Sequence record: NC_007807.1
Length of the DNA stretch: 43,365 nucleotides
Reading direction: 5' to 3' (one strand)
From: Pseudomonas phage 119X
Shown here: positions 1 to 43,365 of the stretch, in pieces
Position numbering within the stretch: position 1 is the first letter of the stretch
Layout of the letters: every line of letters starts with the position of its first letter
Position numbers and translations under genes: made by a program
The notes under the pieces: model-generated
The model's database searches: none
Seen by the model: only the letters and a program-made list of their open reading frames with translations
What the model was told of the DNA's origin: nothing

Positions 1-22
1 TAAGTGTATAGTGGTCATATTG

Positions 23-100
23 ATAGGGGGTTAAAAAATTCTTTATTATTAGGGGGTATATAGGGGAATAGAGAATAGGGATTTATAGGGGATAATAATT
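23..100. repeat. Five copies of ATAGGGG(G)/TATAGGGGAATA/TATAGGGGATAATA at irregular 10-27 bp spacing, followed by a G8 homopolymer at 126..133
   Basis: Read directly. Copies at 23..30, 50..57, 62..66, 77..81 and 87..92. The complementary-orientation CTATCCCCC motif occurs twice in the last 35 nt of the window. Confidence 0.7.
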
Positions 101-180
101 ACAGGGTAGTGGACTATTATAAGGAGGGGGGGGCCACCCCTAAACCTACCTCGGCCTACTTTGAGATTGTTTCAGAAAGT

Positions 181-229
181 TTGAAAAAACATTGAAAAAA
201 CCTTGGGCCAAAACCTTGGGCAACCTTGA
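181..229. repeat. Iteron-like direct repeats: TTGAAAAAAC x2 (181..190, 192..201) and ACCTTG(G/A) x3 (201.., 213.., 223..) at 10-13 bp spacing
   Basis: Read directly. ACCTTGG is the reverse complement of the CCAAGGT repeats at the right end, 43207..43277. Confidence 0.7.
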
Positions 230-331
230 CTCCCGATTGCACGTAACCACGGCCAATTTTACGAATAATTCACCAGGGACCATGATTATTAGTCAGGGAC
301 TAGGCCGAGGCTAGACTAAATAAAAGGCAAT

Positions 332-380: not shown

Positions 381-1112
381 TTACCAGTCCAGTTCTGCCG
401 GGTCTTGCTCGCAGTATTCTGCGATCTTCTGGAGGAAACCGGCTTGCCATTCGGACAATTGCTCGGCATTAACCAGCGCTTCGCCGAATTCGTTTACCCA
501 GCCCAATACGGCATTCCGCACATTCTCAGGCTGCGCCAGCAAACCTTCCGGCTGATTGAAGAAGGAGATAGCCAGCTTCTTGACGCCTTCGGATTTTGGC
601 AGATTGGAAACGAATTCGCTCCAGGCTGCGATAAGAGCGCGGCGCTCAGCAAACACGACACTGGCTTGACGCTCAGAAGGAGTAATAACCTCTACGAAAT
701 TCTCCGGCATCTTGCAGCCAGGGCGCAGAGTAGCAGTTTTAGTCTGGAGCTTATTACGAGCATCAGCCTTGCAGGTAGAAACTACAGAACGATACAGGAA
801 GGCTTCTGCCAGTCCCTCATACTGATACAGCCCATCCTCAGTCAGGTCAGGAGTACCGTCAGCCTTGAGCTTCGGAATAACAGCCAGGCCGAATTCTTCC
901 AGGGAAGGAATGTAGGACGACCATTCGCCTACCTTGACGCGGCCTTTGCCTTCTACCTGCTGGCTAACTTCGTTGGTAACGATCATACCAGGGAACTTAA
1001 TTACTTGAGCTTCGGACATTTTCTGAATCCTCGGAATTGATTGGATGGTCAATCCGTCCACCTTAGTGGCGGTCGGTTTGGGCACTATAACGAAGTAACC
1101 CAGCATAGGCAA
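381..1112 (-). CDS. Hypothetical protein, last gene of the leftward left-arm operon. The annotated start is TTG; the ATG two codons in (plus 1104..1106) is more likely.
   Basis: 243-aa ORF with protein-like composition. The opposite-strand ORF 366..1040 is L/R-rich, typical of an antisense shadow. An intrinsic terminator lies ~20 nt downstream of its stop on the minus strand. Confidence 0.55.
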   Translation of the reverse strand: MPMLGYFVIVPKPTATKVDGLTIQSIPRIQKMSEAQVIKFPGMIVTNEVSQQVEGKGRVKVGEWSSYIPSLEEFGLAVIPKLKADGTPDLTEDGLYQYEGLAEAFLYRSVVSTCKADARNKLQTKTATLRPGCKMPENFVEVITPSERQASVVFAERRALIAAWSEFVSNLPKSEGVKKLAISFFNQPEGLLAQPENVRNAVLGWVNEFGEALVNAEQLSEWQAGFLQKIAEYCEQDPAELDW

Positions 1113-1165
1113 CCAATTTTTAGATTATTCTAACTGATTGCCTATACTTGCCTACCTCAATTAGC

Positions 1166-1180
1166 CTGGCTGAGCCTGGA
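1166..1180. repeat. 15-mer CTGGCTGAGCCTGGA, repeated exactly at 1839..1853. GCCTGGA occurs four times across the two left-arm intergenic regions.
   Basis: Exact 15-bp match in two non-coding regions, each upstream of a minus-strand gene start. Further GCCTGGA copies at 1196..1202 and 1831..1837. Confidence 0.6.
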
Positions 1181-1203
1181 ATCAAACTCCTAATAAGCCT
1201 GGA

Positions 1204-1518
1204 CTAGAATCCGCCCTTGAGCATCCATTCATAGGTTCGAATGGCATTAGAATAGAAGGAGTGAGCTTTATTAGCCTCCTCCTTAGCGCCCATATCCCGC
1301 TGAGCAACATAGTGATTGTACATGGCTGCTATGTACTCCAGGCAATCCCTCCTCGACCGAAAATAATTCTTAGTCAATTCCAGGGGGCGCTCCAGGGAAT
1401 TAATAGGGAAATAGACTAGAGTGACTGGCCTAGCCTCTACCAAGGCAAGCTGAGTTTGATAGTCATTAAATGCCCGAACAGCCATCAGATTATTAGTAGC
1501 CATTAGATTAAACTCCAT
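1204..1518 (-). CDS. Hypothetical protein
   Basis: 104-aa ORF co-oriented with its neighbours. Its start overlaps the stop of the upstream gene, suggesting translational coupling. Confidence 0.5.
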   Translation of the reverse strand: MEFNLMATNNLMAVRAFNDYQTQLALVEARPVTLVYFPINSLERPLELTKNYFRSRRDCLEYIAAMYNHYVAQRDMGAKEEANKAHSFYSNAIRTYEWMLKGGF

Positions 1519-1717
1519 TGAAGCGGATAGACTTAGGGAAGCGACTAATTAGGGACGACAGCTTAGCCTTGAACTGACTAGCCCCACGATTGAATTCCTC
1601 TAGCAGGGACCGATTAATCCAATCGAAATAAGCCTTATGCCAGGCGCTAGCATCCGCGCGCTCGCACCGAACTTGAATAGCCAGTTTCCGAATATCCAAT
1701 ACATTCATGATTTCCAT
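1508..1717 (-). CDS. Hypothetical small protein, first gene of the left-arm operon
   Basis: 69-aa ORF immediately downstream of a sigma70-like promoter on the minus strand. Confidence 0.4.
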   Translation of the reverse strand: MEIMNVLDIRKLAIQVRCERADASAWHKAYFDWINRSLLEEFNRGASQFKAKLSSLISRFPKSIRFNGV

Positions 1718-1762
1718 CTACCTAACTCTTAACTAGATCAAAGTTAATTAACTACACCGGTC

Positions 1763-1790
1763 ATTCTAGTCCGACTTAGTTAGAAGTCAA
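1763..1790 (-). promoter_or_regulatory. Sigma70-like promoter for the leftward left-arm operon. -35 TTGACT is at plus 1785..1790 and -10 TAGAAT at plus 1763..1768, with a 16-nt spacer.
   Basis: The minus strand reads TTGACTtctaactaagtcggacTAGAAT about 45 nt upstream of the start codon at 1717. Confidence 0.35.
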
Positions 1791-2095
1791 GCCTAATTCT
1801 AATTAATTTCATCCTAATACTGGCCTAGTTGCCTGGAGACTGGCTGAGCCTGGACGAAGGGAATGATAATTAGTTGCATTCATAGGGGGCTACGGACCTT
1901 TTTGGGTCAGGGGGGAGGGGGGTGTATCATATACCACTCAACAAAAATTTCTAAACTTTTCCAAATTCAAGCTCCAGGTTCTAATTCCAAGTCCTAATTA
2001 TTAGCTCCAGCACCCCTGGCCCCGGCCTCCTTCTTTATATATACTATCCCTAACCCACCCTCGGCCCCTGCGGCCCCACCTGGAGCCAGACCCCC

Positions 2096-18316: not shown

Positions 18317-21300
18317 ATGATTCAATTGGGCGATCTGAATAACCTCTCGCTAGCATCTCAGTATGACTGGCAGACTCAGAACGCCGTAGATAAGGCCGCA
18401 GGGATTGCGGTCGCTACGGTTGTTGATATTGGAACCAGTATGTGGAATTCCCTTGTGCCGGAGTCTACTGGCTGGGAAGTATCCACCCAATCCCTCCTGC
18501 AAAGCATGGGCGCAAAAGGAGCATTGCAGGCTTATAATGAGAACACTGATACTGTTCAAGCTTTGAGCTTTATTGGTGGAATATTTATTCCTGGGGGTGC
18601 GGCCCTCAAGCTAGCCAAGGGAATTCGGGCTGGTCTTAAGGCTACTAACTTCCTTTCCTCTGCTCGCCACATGGAAGATTTGGCTAAGTATGAGAACTTG
18701 ATTGCCACTGCCAAGACTGGGACGGCTGAGTATAAGAAGCTTCGCAATGGAATGTACCTGCGTGGGCAAGCTAATAACCTGATGGACTCTGTAGCTATTG
18801 AGCTTAGCCTGATGGGAGCTTTCAATGCTCACCCATACATGGAAGACTACATGGAGAACCCCATTAAGAACTTTGGGATTGGTCTAGCTCTGGGAGGAGG
18901 CATTGGAGGTGGATTAGCAGCCATTGGTAGTAGGATTGAACTCAAGGGAATTCAAGGGTTAGTAGAGTCTAAGGCTCTGGAGCAAGTTAGGGAGACTGCT
19001 AATCTGTTCGATAGTGCCTTTAGTGACACTTCTACTACCCTGACTAACCTCAAGTATTCTGCTCAGAATCTGGAACAGATGACTCAGCTTCCCAATTATA
19101 CTCCGTTAGCTAAGGAGATGGCTGGGAATATGGCTTTGTCTATTCGTGGAAGAATGGGTGAGCTTGCTGAGAAGAAGGCTGCGGCTGATATCAAGAATCT
19201 GCCAGCTGGAGAAGAGAAGTCTGCTATCCTGGATAGACTTACTGATCTGCGGTTCAATGGGGTTGATAGCTTTGGATTCTTCAAGCCCCAGGATATAGGG
19301 CTTAAGCCAACTAATCCAATCACTACTCAGCCTGCTCCTAGCTTTGTTAAGACTTCCATCGTGGATGGGAATCCAGTTAAAGAGTTCAGAAGCGAGAGTT
19401 TCTATTCTCCAGACCTGGATTCTTTTATGACTCGGGCCCAGGCTCAACAGGTTGCCTCGGCTGCTGACCTTGGATATTCTCCGGCAGATATTACCAGGAA
19501 AGCAGGAAGGCTGACCTGGAAGCGTCTTCAGAATAATTTTGCTGAGCTTCAGCTTGGTGAGCGTACTGCGGATGTAGAAGTTAACTGGCTGGCAAACCTG
19601 AAGTATTTCGATAGTCTGGATACTAAGCGGCTCTTGGAAACTGAGCTGGTTAAAGGAGATTTCCCGGCTATTCAAGGCTGGCTCCGGGCAACTGAGAAGC
19701 GGCGGAATGAAGCTTATTCCAAGTTCCAGACTGCTATGGCAGAAGGGAATCCTGACGCCAATAAGTTCCTAGAAGAGTTCACTAGGATCGAACAGGCTAA
19801 GGTTAAGCTGTTCTCTGGTGATAGGGTTCAACTGGTAGAAGTCCAGGAGATAGGAACTAGCCTTCCTATCACAATGGATGGTCTGAACTATGTTAAGCCT
19901 ACTCACATCCAAGACATTAGTAAAGAGATTGATACTAGGACTATTCAGCCTCTGTTGAATGAGTCTACTGAATTTAGCGTGGCCAGGAAACTCTCAGCAG
20001 ACATGGATCGTTATATCCTTCATAAGGCTGGAGCTAAGAGCCTAGAAGATGTACCTGCCCGAGCCCAAGAGAAATTTATTAGGGAATGGGCTGGAATTAA
20101 CAGGGAAGCAATGCAATCCTTTGTATCTCCTAATGCTGGATTGAATCCTTCCACTGTAGCTATTCTCCTTAAATGGATTGGTGGTAAGTTCCAGGATAAA
20201 GAAGCCTTCCGCAATGCAATGGCATCAGCACGTACTCTTCGTAATGGCCAGGATTCTACTACTCCTTTCCATGATGAATTGGCTAATATGCTGAATAGCC
20301 CGCTTGTAAAGGCTCAACAGGAAGCACTTCGCCGCCATGCGGATCAGGCTGGTAACGTATACCTATATCGTGGCCTTAAGTCTGATCCTGTTGGAGATAC
20401 TCCGGTATCTAGTTATACTTTCCACGAGCAAGTAGCTAGATCCTTCCAGGAAGGGATGGCTGATCCTTCTATCTTCCGAGTGCACGTAGATGATGTTGTA
20501 GGCTACTTGTACGGATATGAGCGTGAATGGCTGGTAGGAGCTTCGACTAGGGATAGACTGGATGCTCTGCCTACTTCAACTGGAGCTTCTTCTAAGCCTC
20601 GGACTAATAGGGGTGCCCCTAAGTTTGAGACCTTGACTATGGCCCAGATGTATAAGCAGTATCTGGCTGATAAGTCTGAAGCAATCCACAACGTTGTTAA
20701 TGAGGGAGCATTAGCCCAAGAAGTTATTGCTCTCCAGTACAACGTTCCTTTGGATATGGTTCCAGTTCTAGGCAGTAATAAGTATGCCTTCACTGAACTG
20801 GCTCAGAGTAAAGGATATTCTGAGGCTATTTCCAAGCTGGATAGGTGGAAGGATGCTGAGGAGATTCCTCAGGCTTTGGCTCCGACTCGTAGGATCATGA
20901 GTCTTAAGGCTAGAGAAGATCAGCATATGGGCCGGACAGGTGAACTATTGGATCTTCAGCGACAAGCTTTGGTCTCTAAAGCTGCCCTGTCCACTGAGGT
21001 TAAGATGGCCCTGAATAATGGGGATACTGCTCATGCCAACCTGATGCAGGCTAGGCTGAATGTGGTTGATTCTACCTTTGCTGACATTAATAAGCTATGG
21101 GTAGAGAATTCCATTCGGGCTGAGAAATCTGAACTGGCTAATAGTCTCCTGGATAATATCATTGATTCGGCTGAGTATAAAGCCTTGAGGGAAGGGCTTA
21201 ACCAGTTCGTTAATGGTAAAGGAGGTAATCCGTTCTACCAATCGGCTGATTTTGTAACCAGTCAGATGGGAGATGTAGGTAGACTGGTAACTAGCATTGG

Positions 21301-23866
21301 GGAACGCGTGACTCATTATGCTAACGAGGCTGCAACTAAGTACCTCACTCCGGTAGCAACTGAGTTTAGGAAACTGCACACTGACTTAGCAGCACGGGCT
21401 GAATTTGCTAACCTGGATAATCTTCGTCAAGGGACTCCAGGCTATGTGAGGTATGATGTTGAAAGTCGAATGCTGGTTACTGGGACCCTAGATCCTAAGA
21501 CTGGACAGATGATTAATGTCACTCCTCTCATGGATAAGCCTGTAGTGAGTGACATAGTTCATAATCTGCTTGAAGCTTCTCAGAAAGCGGGTGATGAAAT
21601 CTATAATACTCAGTCTGTTATTAATAGGCTTTCTGGTAGGGATAAGCCAGCCAGTGTCGGACTATGGATTCCTCCAGCTAGTCTGAAGAATAAGGAGTAT
21701 GCCTATATTGATAATCTCGATACTCGGCAACGAAAGCTAATTATCGGTAACAACTCTAAGGAACTGGAAGAGGCTATTAGCTTGTATACTCCTGGTCCTA
21801 ATGAGCGGATTATCAGAAGATCGGAGGCTCAGCTTGAAAATGAGGCTATGATTGGAGATGACCTGGAACGAGTCTATGCTGCTGATATAACTAGGCAGAA
21901 ACGAGGGATGGGTCCTGCTACTCCTGATCTATCGGCTCAAAGGCTGGATGAGATTATTATGGGCTACCGGGACAGATTCCTTGCCCAAGCCTCAGGCATT
22001 ACTGAGCTATCTTCTTTTGACCTCATGAAGAAGTTAGACTACGTGTCTGAATTCAATCGCCGGTCTATTGGTAATAACAACAAAACTGGATGGAGGAAAA
22101 TTGCAGAGAACTTCGCTACTAAGGATACGGCTAGGGATATTAAGGATCTCCTCCTTGGTCAGAATCCCGTTTATCGTAGTGAAGTAATGCGGAATGTGAA
22201 CAACGTAACAGACTCTGTTATCCAGGGCGTAATGCGAACATTCCAGAATGCTTGGGAGATTGCTAAGCCTACCAAGTTCACATCTACTAACTATGATAAG
22301 TTTGAAGCTGCTCGTAAGGCTGCGGGGATTGAAGATCCGTTTGCTGCCTTTACAGAAGCTGCTAGACCTCTAATGTATGAACGAGCTAGGCAGCAGGGAA
22401 TCTCTAATCCGAATAGGATCATCCAGATTGGTAACGAGATTTCTACTACTCTGGCTTTGAAATTCATGGAGCTTGCGCAGCCAATTACCAATATGCTCAG
22501 TCTGCCTATCTTGATGACTTCTACTATCAGTAGGGCAATTAAGGCAGGAGGAATTCAGACTGGGGTTGATGCTCTTAATAGCAGTAGCCTCTCCATTATG
22601 CTTGGAGGGGTAAGGAGGATGAACAGTAGTAATCCGATAGACCAGCGAATCTTTAAGATGGCTGAGGCAGAAGGATTGTTCAGTCCTATTATCTCCGAAG
22701 TGGATGCAGTTATGAAGCTCAGTAGATTCTCAGCAGGAGGTACTGCTGCTACTATTGAAAAAGCTCTTGACTCTAAGTTTGTAGAGCTAATGGGTAAACC
22801 TTCTGAACTAGCTGAGACTCTGGTACGTAAGACTGCTTTTGCTACCGGGATTGAAACTGCCCGTAGATTGTATGGGAATAAGGCATCGGATAAGCAGGTT
22901 CTAATCTTTGCTAGGGATTTCCTTAAGCAGTCGGTAGGTAACTATACTACCAGTCAGCGGCCTATGCTTTTCCAAGGAAGTGCTGGGGCAGCTATAGGAT
23001 TATTCCAAACCTATATGCTGACCTATGCTCAAAACCTCTACAGGCATCTGGAATTAAAGGACTATAAAGGTCTTGGGAAAGTTATGCTAGCTCAAGGAGG
23101 TATTTTTGGAGCAGGTAGCCTTCCTGGATTCCAGCCTATTAGTAATGCGATTGGGGATCATTTCTCGGATGATAACTATGATCTGACTACGGGAACCTTT
23201 AGAGCTTTGGATGATGACCTAGCTAGTATTCTTATCTATGGTCTTCCCTCTAACCTTGGTCCAGCATTACATACTCGTGGTGATGTTAACCCTAGGATTC
23301 CATCTAGCTTTGATACTATGGTTGCTCCATCCATGATTGGGCAGCTTATGACCAGCTTTGTGGATGTAGGCAAGGCTGTTCTCAAGCAGGATGGTAACGT
23401 GGGGCAGGCATTCTTCGAGGCACTCAGTACTCAGTCTGTTAGCCGGCCAATAGCGAGGTTGTCTGAGTTGGCTAGTGGGTATAGTGTAACAGGAGCAGGG
23501 AATCAGATTGCAGCTCCTGAGGATGTCTGGACTTGGCAGGGAGTATTGGCTAGGGTTCTATCTACCCGACCACTGAAGGAGGCTAAGGTAAGAGAGGCTA
23601 TCCACCTCAATACTTATTATGGATCCTTGGATAGGGAGCAAAGGCAGGCAGTCCTGGAAACTATGAAGACTGCTATTAGGAATAATAACCTGACTCCTGA
23701 ACTCATGGATGACCTGGCTCTAGAATACCTGAGGACTGGAACTCCTCAAGGACTCCGTAGTAGCATCAACCAAGCCTTTATGGAGAATGAAGAGGGTAAG
23801 GTAGCTCAGCTTCGCCAGACCTTTAAAGATTCTCCTCTGGTATACTTGCTAGACGATCTGGATTAA
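18317..23866 (+). CDS. Giant virion protein of 1849 aa (internal ejection protein, gp16-like position, or tail fibre)
   Basis: Single uninterrupted 5.5-kb ORF. Contains a Gly-rich segment GLALGGGIGGGLAAIG. It is the last gene of the rightward block and is followed by the bidirectional terminator. Confidence 0.55.
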   Translation: MIQLGDLNNLSLASQYDWQTQNAVDKAAGIAVATVVDIGTSMWNSLVPESTGWEVSTQSLLQSMGAKGALQAYNENTDTVQALSFIGGIFIPGGAALKLAKGIRAGLKATNFLSSARHMEDLAKYENLIATAKTGTAEYKKLRNGMYLRGQANNLMDSVAIELSLMGAFNAHPYMEDYMENPIKNFGIGLALGGGIGGGLAAIGSRIELKGIQGLVESKALEQVRETANLFDSAFSDTSTTLTNLKYSAQNLEQMTQLPNYTPLAKEMAGNMALSIRGRMGELAEKKAAADIKNLPAGEEKSAILDRLTDLRFNGVDSFGFFKPQDIGLKPTNPITTQPAPSFVKTSIVDGNPVKEFRSESFYSPDLDSFMTRAQAQQVASAADLGYSPADITRKAGRLTWKRLQNNFAELQLGERTADVEVNWLANLKYFDSLDTKRLLETELVKGDFPAIQGWLRATEKRRNEAYSKFQTAMAEGNPDANKFLEEFTRIEQAKVKLFSGDRVQLVEVQEIGTSLPITMDGLNYVKPTHIQDISKEIDTRTIQPLLNESTEFSVARKLSADMDRYILHKAGAKSLEDVPARAQEKFIREWAGINREAMQSFVSPNAGLNPSTVAILLKWIGGKFQDKEAFRNAMASARTLRNGQDSTTPFHDELANMLNSPLVKAQQEALRRHADQAGNVYLYRGLKSDPVGDTPVSSYTFHEQVARSFQEGMADPSIFRVHVDDVVGYLYGYEREWLVGASTRDRLDALPTSTGASSKPRTNRGAPKFETLTMAQMYKQYLADKSEAIHNVVNEGALAQEVIALQYNVPLDMVPVLGSNKYAFTELAQSKGYSEAISKLDRWKDAEEIPQALAPTRRIMSLKAREDQHMGRTGELLDLQRQALVSKAALSTEVKMALNNGDTAHANLMQARLNVVDSTFADINKLWVENSIRAEKSELANSLLDNIIDSAEYKALREGLNQFVNGKGGNPFYQSADFVTSQMGDVGRLVTSIGERVTHYANEAATKYLTPVATEFRKLHTDLAARAEFANLDNLRQGTPGYVRYDVESRMLVTGTLDPKTGQMINVTPLMDKPVVSDIVHNLLEASQKAGDEIYNTQSVINRLSGRDKPASVGLWIPPASLKNKEYAYIDNLDTRQRKLIIGNNSKELEEAISLYTPGPNERIIRRSEAQLENEAMIGDDLERVYAADITRQKRGMGPATPDLSAQRLDEIIMGYRDRFLAQASGITELSSFDLMKKLDYVSEFNRRSIGNNNKTGWRKIAENFATKDTARDIKDLLLGQNPVYRSEVMRNVNNVTDSVIQGVMRTFQNAWEIAKPTKFTSTNYDKFEAARKAAGIEDPFAAFTEAARPLMYERARQQGISNPNRIIQIGNEISTTLALKFMELAQPITNMLSLPILMTSTISRAIKAGGIQTGVDALNSSSLSIMLGGVRRMNSSNPIDQRIFKMAEAEGLFSPIISEVDAVMKLSRFSAGGTAATIEKALDSKFVELMGKPSELAETLVRKTAFATGIETARRLYGNKASDKQVLIFARDFLKQSVGNYTTSQRPMLFQGSAGAAIGLFQTYMLTYAQNLYRHLELKDYKGLGKVMLAQGGIFGAGSLPGFQPISNAIGDHFSDDNYDLTTGTFRALDDDLASILIYGLPSNLGPALHTRGDVNPRIPSSFDTMVAPSMIGQLMTSFVDVGKAVLKQDGNVGQAFFEALSTQSVSRPIARLSELASGYSVTGAGNQIAAPEDVWTWQGVLARVLSTRPLKEAKVREAIHLNTYYGSLDREQRQAVLETMKTAIRNNNLTPELMDDLALEYLRTGTPQGLRSSINQAFMENEEGKVAQLRQTFKDSPLVYLLDDLD

Positions 23867-23921: not shown

Positions 23922-24375
<454 letters not shown>

Positions 24376-42456: not shown

Positions 42457-43152
42457 TTACCAGTCCATTTCAGATATCTGAGATTGGGTTAAGGGACTAC
42501 CTATAGTTAGACCGGAGCCAGTCTTAGAGGCTAGCCATTTATTCGGGTCATCGAATCCTTCCCTAGTTAGGAAAATCTCTAGGTATTCTAGATAGGAGTC
42601 CAGGCTAGCCAGGGCATTGGCTCTAGATAGAGCTTTAGCCGGATCAATAGTCCCTCCTACTACTAGTAGGTTATTAATCAATTCAAGCTGAGCAGCTTTT
42701 CCCTTAGCTGAGTAGAGCTTAGCCTTAATTGATTTGAGTGTGGCCAGATGAGATTGCGTGAAAGTAGGATTTGAGGCCCGCCATTGCGGGGAACCGACAG
42801 TTCTAACTTTAGCGTGGGCCAGGAAATTGGCTAGAGTCCAATCAGGCTGAATAGGTAGAACTCCCTGGAGATAGACTAGGCTAATACTGGTAGTGAATAG
42901 GGGGAATTGTTTAGTTAGAAAGGTTCCTCCCTTCTTAGTCTTAGCCTTTGGAATAGGGTTAGATTGGGTTAGATCAGAGGATGGAACCTCGGCTTCTAAA
43001 TCAGCCAGGGTTAGGACTAATTCCTTTTCAGTCCCAGGATTAGGATTAGGATTAGGATTAGAATTAGGATCAGCCTTAAGGCTAGGGTTAGGATCAGTCG
43101 AAGGCTGGAGTAAAGATTTGAGGAAGGAAGAATTAGCCATTGGAAGCTCCAT
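42457..43152 (-). CDS. First gene of the leftward early block: protein with an N-terminal (NP)5 repeat
   Basis: 231 aa. NPNPNPNPNP is encoded by a hexanucleotide tandem repeat (TAGGAT x5, read on plus) at 43037..43070. Confidence 0.5.
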   Translation of the reverse strand: MELPMANSSFLKSLLQPSTDPNPSLKADPNSNPNPNPNPGTEKELVLTLADLEAEVPSSDLTQSNPIPKAKTKKGGTFLTKQFPLFTTSISLVYLQGVLPIQPDWTLANFLAHAKVRTVGSPQWRASNPTFTQSHLATLKSIKAKLYSAKGKAAQLELINNLLVVGGTIDPAKALSRANALASLDSYLEYLEIFLTREGFDDPNKWLASKTGSGLTIGSPLTQSQISEMDW

Positions 43153-43206
43153 AGGTTGGTTTTTGGGTCGGCCATAGTTTGCCGGGGTAGGGAGTCCATT
43201 GTAGGG

Positions 43207-43277
43207 CCAAGGTTAGGTCAAGGTAAATGTCGAGGTTCAGTGAATAAAGGCCAAGGTAGATCAAGGTAGGCCAAGGT
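43207..43277. repeat. Iteron-like array: (C/T)CAAGGT(A/T) x5-6 at 10-13 bp spacing. The three tightest copies, CAAGGTAG, are 10 bp apart at 43251..43280.
   Basis: Read directly. Copies at 43207, 43218, 43231 (CGAGGTT variant), 43251, 43261 and 43271. It is the reverse complement of the ACCTTGG repeats at 199..229. Confidence 0.7.
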
Positions 43278-43283
43278 AGGGAA

Positions 43284-43360
43284 GGGGGTAGGGGTAGGCT
43301 TAGAATAATTCCATCCCCAGGTTAAGACTGCTATCCCCCAGGAAAAGGAGTCTATCCCCC
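43284..43360. repeat. Terminal G-tract then C-tract motifs: GGGGGTAGGGGTAGG, then CATCCCCA, CTATCCCCCA, CTATCCCCCTTATA
   Basis: Read directly. The last 15 nt reverse-complement to TATAAGGGGGATAGA, which closely matches TATAGGGGAATAGAG at 59..73. Confidence 0.6.
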
Positions 43361-43365
43361 TTATA

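Follow-up and report, generated by a model that had tools for sequence, protein, structure and literature searches.

The genome record of Pseudomonas phage 119X (NC_007807.1) is a linear sequence of 43,365 nucleotides (nt), which was analysed over its full length and is referred to here as the window. It begins and ends in gene-free DNA that is dense in short repeated words. Are these two stretches the physical ends of a linear molecule, or are they parts of one internal region, and what would such a region do? We found that the two record "ends" are the halves of one continuous non-coding region of ~580 bases that is cut by the database record. The region comprises positions 43153–43365 followed by 1–331 and is bounded on one side by the terminator of the early gp04–gp01 operon and on the other by the beginning of the leftward gp55 operon. 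It is probably an intergenic transcription-control block, of ~580 bp, in a terminally redundant genome of the genus Jamesmcgillvirus.

Over its opening 3 kb and its closing 1 kb, the window matched 14 Pseudomonas aeruginosa podophage records with 84–97% identity, including those of PaP2, PaMx41, PaMx43, PaMx46, PaMx33, PaMx35, PaMx32, Ph_15, 20Aug470, Neko, TF17, and FBPa48. All of the matched phages belong to Jamesmcgillvirus, the single genus of the family Fredfastierviridae. The junction from position 43365 to position 1 is crossed, with zero extra bases, by 11 independent assemblies: five permuted GenBank records (PaMx32, 20Aug470, which was deposited as circular, FBPa48, Neko, and TF17), five Logan contigs, which are assemblies of independent sequencing runs, and one contig from NCBI. 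The PaMx records and that of Ph_15 begin, to within one base, at the PaP2-homologous base, a pattern that looks like co-linearisation to the older PaP2 record, and the cut point of 119X is shared with that earlier record and presumably copied from it. Contig break points were considered as a proxy for physical ends and were set aside, being scattered (window positions 1934, 1810, and 183). The cut point also contains a 10-bp palindrome, CTTATATAAG, but this is confined to 119X/PaMx41-type relatives (119X, PaMx41, PaMx32, and the sequences L029 and L032), and a telomere-resolution site at this position was rejected on the basis of that restriction.

The initial annotation had proposed inverted similarity between the record ends and suggested a dot-plot as a check. 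Smith-Waterman alignment of positions 1–400 with the reverse complement of 42950–43365 gave as its best match 145–164 against 43261–43280, with 18 of 20 nt identical and a score of 30, compared with 20.1 ± 2.5 for shuffled sequences; this score was reached by 1 of 500 shuffles. This single 20-nt match is significant, and nothing longer was detected. It sits 86–164 nt inside the record ends, and the extreme terminal bases share nothing. Alignment of the ends revealed no direct similarity between them; direct terminal repeats are collapsed by assemblers. For the relative Shea, PhageTerm reported terminally redundant ends from a tagmented library, in a paper that states no repeat length, and this report together with the circular assemblies is compatible with headful (pac) packaging. 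Published accounts of the physical ends of 119X, PaP2, TF17, Neko, or FBPa48 were not found in the literature. The genome of PaMx41 is reportedly linear and terminally redundant. The fallback offered by the initial annotation, a ~580-bp control region with opposed repeat arrays, thus fits in that the block is continuous in every relative and the Shea genome is reported to be redundant, but the arrays do not flank the block as a whole.

Sequence comparisons across the block covered 18 related sequences, with regard to hexamers, spacing, and array units. From the gp55 side to the gp01 side, the features of the block and its bordering genes are as follows (strand in parentheses).

42457–43152 (−): gp55, with its start codon at 43152; first gene of a long leftward operon in which a helicase gene and other replication genes follow.
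43227→43198 (−): sigma-70-type promoter-like site TTTACC-18-TACAAT, pointing into gp55.
43205–43280 (no strand): right array of YCAAGGTAR units with a spacing of 10–11 bp, overlapping the gp55 promoter-like site and reaching upstream of it.
43281–43296 (+): G-run cluster GAAGGGGGTAGGGGTA, conserved in relatives.
43305–43365 (+): three tandem units of ~21 nt, each (C)TATCC plus C-runs, with two haplotypes in relatives to which CTATCC alone is common.
43358–43365 together with 1–6 (no strand): record cut point; these ~14 nt show the lowest conservation in the block and occur as two main haplotypes with intermediate forms.
20–49 (+): rightward sigma-70 promoter-like site TTGATA-18-TATTAT, matching the consensus at 10 of 12 positions, with an invariant −10 hexamer and a −35 hexamer of the form TTGRYA in the 18 relatives.
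23–133 (+): G-run array on one strand, with (A)TAGGGG(G) units at 23, 49, 60, 74, and 85, a GGGAATA heptad repeat, and G8 at 126–133.
144→116 (−): leftward promoter-like site TTTAGG-17-TATAAT, whose spacer includes the G8/C8 tract.
145–164 (+): two degenerate array units, CTACCTCGGC and CTACTTTGAG, in the stretch of the 18/20 match to the reverse complement of 43261–43280.
181–205 (+): two phased A6 tracts, TTGAAAAAACA twice with a period of 11, a sequence of the intrinsic-bend type.
197–230 (+): left array, AAAACCTTGGGC twice and AACCTTGAC, in the orientation opposite to that of the right array and nearly invariant in 16 relatives.
250–310 (no strand): indel-rich variable spacer, in which 55% of alignment columns vary.
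332–364 (−): intrinsic leftward terminator, also claimed by the initial annotation, with a GC hairpin and U6 (−20.6 kcal/mol); annotated in the PaMx records.
381–1019 (−): gp01, an early gene of unknown function whose product ends in AELDW.

The repeat arrays in the block are real and exceed chance. As the initial annotation had described, five exact copies of CAAGGT are present in the right half (43208, 43219, 43252, 43262, and 43272), and the left half contains three ACCTTG words (200, 213, and 223), the G8 tract at 126–133, and two copies of TTGAAAAAAC (181 and 192), the only two in the genome. Its five ATAGGGG units were resolved into three exact copies (23, 60, and 85) and two variants (TTAGGGGG at 49 and ATAGGGA at 74). 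The word CTATCCCCC, which was said to mirror ATAGGGG, is present at 43331 and 43352, but it is the plain complement and not the reverse complement, so that the pair is not an inverted repeat; the reverse-complement words CCCCTAT and GGGGGATAG showed zero occurrences. The C-runs of CTATCCCCC become CTATCCTCT and CTATCCTAA in PaP2-type relatives and are lost in most relatives. Five CAAGGT words within 70 nt (43208–43277) correspond to a Poisson probability of 2e-10, or ~6e-4 after correction for all hexamers and windows. The value for four TAGGGG words (24–91) is marginal (~0.04 after correction), and that for three ACCTTG words is significant (1e-6) solely if they are taken as the reverse complement of the right-hand word. 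The CAAGGT and TAGGGG clusters are the top non-coding hexamer clusters genome-wide, their sole rival being a coding AGGATT repeat in gp55. A role for TAGGGG/ATAGGG as a genome-wide promoter motif was rejected, given that the remaining copies fall in coding DNA. Positions 1–330 contain no credible open reading frame (ORF), in agreement with the initial annotation; the ORFs of 40–45 amino acids found there are not conserved in relatives.

Transcription of the gp55 operon must start inside the block. In all 18 sequences compared, the TTTACC and TACAAT hexamers at 43227→43198 are unchanged, as is their 18-nt spacing, and the bases of the spacer vary. At the sequence level this site has the properties of a sigma-70 promoter, including recognisable hexamers, a spacing within 16–18 nt, a position upstream of an operon, and conservation. 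The array that overlaps it consists of units at 43208, 43219, 43252, 43262, and 43272 and a degenerate CGAGGT at 43231. It contains at least three direct repeats at helical spacing, with 3.3 copies at a period of 10 and two units at a spacing of 11 nt. Among relatives the array varies, with four or five exact units, the misspelt forms CGAGGT, CAAAGT, and CGAGAT, and a 23-nt indel. On the other side of the block, a promoter-like site matching the consensus at 10 of 12 positions (1790→1763) heads the gp04–gp01 operon, which ends at the terminator that bounds the block. This operon is early because gp1 is an early gene, according to the classification in a preprint, which relies on northern blots from the paper on PaMx41 (Cruz-Plancarte et al. 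2016, AEM 82:6541). The GenBank records annotate the terminator and ribosome-binding sites in the block, with no promoter, repeat, or end features annotated there. The PaMx41 genome map shows the same block in the same genus, with the same annotated terminator and an early gp1, and differs from the present description in that its records lack those three kinds of feature.

The left half contains the 20–49 site; elsewhere in the genome, just one other intergenic site matches at 10/12 or better. Between positions 20 and 140, seven G-runs of at least three bases are accompanied by one C-run, with a GC skew of +0.63. In the segment 70–250, 0–7% of alignment columns vary, equal to the value for the gp01 coding sequence, and the segment is therefore under constraint. 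The tract in the spacer of the 144→116 site is G8 in 14 relatives and G7 in four (PaP2, PaMx43, Ph_15, and FBPa48), changing the spacing of TTTAGG and TATAAT from 17 to 16 nt; the G7/G8 difference could be a sequencing error. At least one natural relative does without the left array. In the Logan contig ERR2704876_377 (L028), the right array of five CAAGGT words is the same as in the window, and in the equivalent of 197–245 the three ACCTTG units are replaced by ACTTTGGGG, ACATTGGGC, CAATGACA, and a G6 run. Loss of the left units with retention of the right array therefore weakens the notion of an obligatory left–right pair of sites for one protein.

Comparison with a more distant phage bears on the opposed orientation of the arrays. 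A search with TerL beyond the genus retrieved Polaromonas phage Tiera (42% identity), EBPR podovirus 3, and Aeromonas phage P5. Tiera has a non-coding block of 780 bp in the equivalent place, upstream of leftward genes, in which strong or perfect-consensus sigma-70 promoters stand beside a perfect 72-nt tandem duplication rich in G-runs (L024 1629–1772, corresponding to Tiera 43928–44071). The Tiera homologue of gp01 (27% identity, E = 7e-20; L024 2215–2886) lies on the terS strand directly upstream of terS, whereas the gp01–gp04 block of Jamesmcgillvirus (window 381–2000) lies on the strand opposite to terS; this block is therefore inverted between the two lineages. The opposite facing of the left ACCTTG units is more likely a by-product of the gp01–gp04 inversion than a functional palindrome. 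Phage P5 was considered as an array-bearing relative and discarded, because its non-coding block corresponds to the region upstream of terS and has no such arrays.

On the transcription-control reading, the right half would serve as promoter and operator of the gp55 operon, with host RNA polymerase predicted to start near position 43191 from TTTACC-18-TACAAT. Further starts in the block are predicted near 109 (−) and 56 (+). The YCAAGGTAR units, phased at 10–11 bp, would present candidate binding sites for a regulator on the same face of the DNA; alternatively, they may be reiterated −35-like TTGRYC elements. The left half (about 17–250) would be a second module in which a rightward promoter leads into one-strand G-runs, phased A-tracts, and ACCTTG-like units, and its candidate roles are replication initiation or terminase recognition at a concatemer junction. 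Several observations weigh against this account. The promoter calls are consensus matches of 9–10 of 12 positions, with a small local excess over shuffles. The arrays could not be matched to any DNA-binding protein; gp55 is itself an orphan without a usable structure model, and a domain screen of 28 ORFs against Pfam, 11 of which were also compared with PHROGs, detected no regulator, Rep, or Par domain save a weak helix-turn-helix in TerS. Moreover, a promoter alone leaves the strong conservation of 70–250 unexplained, and the physical ends may lie within the block, in which case it would serve mainly for packaging and not for transcription. With a contiguous copy of the block, Rfam returned nothing beyond chance matches below threshold. 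The + strand RNA of 56–365 folds no better than shuffled sequences (z = +0.56), and single-stranded DNA of 100–175 gave z = +1.2.

A possible but lesser candidate is a concatemer-junction or packaging region, in which the molecule's ends would lie inside the block, as a short direct terminal repeat or the first pac cut, and the arrays would be TerS sites flanking the cut; such a role is compatible with that of a promoter. The terminal redundancy reported for Shea points in this direction, as do the weak N-terminal helix-turn-helix of TerS, the A-tract bends that adjoin the repeats, and the 606-bp direct terminal repeat of Kuura, a distant TerL relative. The block is also the largest gene-free stretch and, like its counterpart in T7, stands next to the beginning of a long operon. 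However, among the 14 deposited relatives not one has an annotated terminal repeat or begins at an end defined by PhageTerm, record starts being PaP2-homologous, at gene boundaries, or within genes, and no repeat length is given for Shea. For Tiera, no direct terminal repeat was reported by a pipeline which had detected such repeats in two other phages. In addition, terS lies 1.8 kb away with its own upstream non-coding region of 380 bp, and the left array is lost in one relative. TerL showed no match in Pfam and no sequence match in the Protein Data Bank (PDB), so that the packaging type cannot be inferred from it.

The concatemer junction of T7 (SRR, 160-bp terminal repeat, SRL, and the early promoters A0/A1–A3) resembles the 119X block as a long gene-free stretch adjoining the start of a long operon. 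The T7 terminal region is as dense in short repeated words (ATAGGGGG, ACCTTGAG, and CCCTTGGG) and likewise has heptad-like arrays (ACCTAAAG) and host-type promoters into early genes. The initial annotation regarded neither inverted terminal repeats nor a control region flanked by inverted iteron arrays as usual for T7-like podoviruses. Given the equal density in T7, a repeat-dense non-coding junction is normal for podophages. The T7-like frame itself does not apply, 119X being a member of Fredfastierviridae with no RNA polymerase match among the ORFs screened. The flanking arrays of T7 are direct, not opposed, its terminal repeat is physically mapped, and the 7- and 8-mers that it shares with the phage are within chance expectation. 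At pacL–pacC–pacR of SPP1 and the R sites of lambda cosB, small-terminase boxes are repeated on both sides of the cut. The 119X block is similar in its two clusters of short phased repeats, its A-tract bent DNA around a central segment, and the TerS helix-turn-helix. It differs in that those sites lie at or in terS whereas terS here is 1.8 kb away, and in that one relative is without the left cluster.

It is rather unlikely that the block is a replication origin in which iteron-like phased repeats and an AT-rich bent segment would recruit a phage initiator, or in which transcription from the 20–49 promoter would form a G-run R-loop that primes the family A polymerase. The phage, which also encodes a Sak4-like annealing protein, has its own replication functions, namely a family A DNA polymerase (Pfam DNA_pol_A, 1e-23), a primase, a Dda-like helicase, and an exonuclease, and the 10–11-bp phasing of the repeats, the promoter-like site followed by seven G-runs on the non-template strand (skew +0.63), and the G-run-rich 72-nt tandem duplication in the equivalent block of Tiera would all suit an origin. 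The segment 43361–55 is among the most AT-rich 60-mers of the genome (72%, compared with a mean of 55%), but it is tied with eight other windows at 0.717. An initiator gene was not recognised in the domain screens, GC skew tracks gene orientation with no origin signal, and conservation of the left ACCTTG units breaks down in one relative. Iterons regulate promoters and origins of the pSC101/P1 type, and the parC of R1 has repeat sets around a promoter. The block resembles these systems in having tandem units of 10–11 bp that overlap the adjacent gene's promoter and continue upstream of it, and in having a second set of units close by. In contrast to them, no Rep, ParR, or ParA-type gene was detected in the ORFs screened, and gp55 has no recognisable fold.

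A low probability was also assigned to the view that the arrays are neutral products of slippage and duplication in an unconstrained spacer, with no sequence-specific function. Unit number and spelling in the right array shift between close relatives (the 23-nt indel, CGAGGT, CAAAGT, and CGAGAT), the left array is replaced in L028, and a coding hexamer repeat is located close by (43036–43070). Nevertheless, at least four CAAGGT units are kept in 18 of 18 relatives, in constant register with invariant promoter hexamers, and 70–250 is conserved like coding sequence.

A narrower proposal, that the highly conserved left half (17–250) is an R-loop-primed origin in which a host-type promoter at 20–49 would transcribe into six or seven non-template G-runs ending at G7/G8, is improbable. 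Priming of the R-loop type occurs at ColE1, at oriF and oriG of T4, and at mitochondrial CSBII. A persistent RNA–DNA hybrid would here be extended by the family A polymerase of the phage; an orphan phage protein, bound at the neighbouring phased repeats and A-tract bends, would link initiation with control of the adjacent gp55 operon, and the 72-nt G-run duplication of Tiera would be another instance of this device.

The reading preferred in the initial annotation, in which a linear, non-redundant genome ends in imperfect inverted terminal repeats, is hardly conceivable: the 18/20 match and the opposed CAAGGT and ACCTTG words favour it, but the match is internal with no extended inverted similarity, the extreme ends are unlike, the junction is crossed by the 11 assemblies and is the least conserved part of the block, and, together with this junction evidence, the reading fails because the polymerase is of family A and not a protein-primed family B enzyme, no terminal-protein family match being found among the 28 ORFs scanned. 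Genomes of the phi29/PRD1 type have terminal inverted sequence, a family B polymerase with a terminal protein, and unjoined ends, none of which was encountered here.

The protein product of gp55 has an N-terminal Pro-Asn repeat, ends in SEMDW, and belongs to PHROG 16737, of unknown function. Its homologues are confined to the genus, and the AlphaFold2 model of this orphan protein was unusable (predicted local distance difference test score, 41). The Pro-Asn repeat linker is encoded by the hexamer tandem repeat AGGATT, with 5.8 copies at 43036–43070, which varies more than any other coding segment near the block (73% of columns). An acidic-x-Asp-Trp COOH-terminus is present in just two ORF products of the window, gp55 (SEMDW) and gp01 (AELDW), whose genes both flank the block. 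By analogy with the acidic, aromatic-ended tails of T7 gp2.5/gp4 or SSB, this ending could be a shared COOH-terminal docking motif.

Elsewhere in the window, a second non-coding region upstream of terS (1860–2095) has ATAGGGGG and G6AG6 runs followed by C-runs, together with the motif CCTTCTTTATATATA; a motif resembling it, CCTTCCTTTATATA, is present in a non-coding region of ~540 bp on the terS side of Aeromonas phage P5, and motifs of this type may be a late promoter or leader element. An ORF of 1849 amino acids (18317–23866, + strand), which closes the late gene block, corresponds to the orphan PHROG 16165 and showed no Pfam match and no PDB sequence match; candidate identities for its product are ejection protein and virion enzyme. 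The ORF at 23922–24266 (− strand) matches the Acb2/Tad1 hairpin domain (Pfam PF24729, E = 7e-18) and is the sponge known from PaMx41 that counters CBASS (cyclic-oligonucleotide-based anti-phage signalling system). Further relatives were sought with a DNA-pattern scan, which gave PaP2 alone among viral contigs and nothing among metagenome and genome contigs. Single-protein searches of the locus returned PaP2, one 35%-identical homologue of gp01 in another gene context, and nothing else.

Apart from a few elements, the block represents a commonplace kind of intergenic control or junction region for a phage, and the genus is a known one. Those elements, which it yields for experiment, are the CAAGGT array over the gp55 promoter, the module of promoter and G-runs, and the G7/G8 tract in a promoter spacer. 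The linear record could mislead readers into taking 119X for a phage with inverted terminal repeats or unusual ends, whereas its genome is circularly assembled and probably terminally redundant. Jamesmcgillviruses such as PaMx41, PaP2, and 119X serve as models for the study of CBASS and Acb2 and in phage cocktails; Cas13a selection of recombinants is already in use for PaMx41, and engineering of these phages must keep intact the promoter, operator, origin, or packaging signals of the block.

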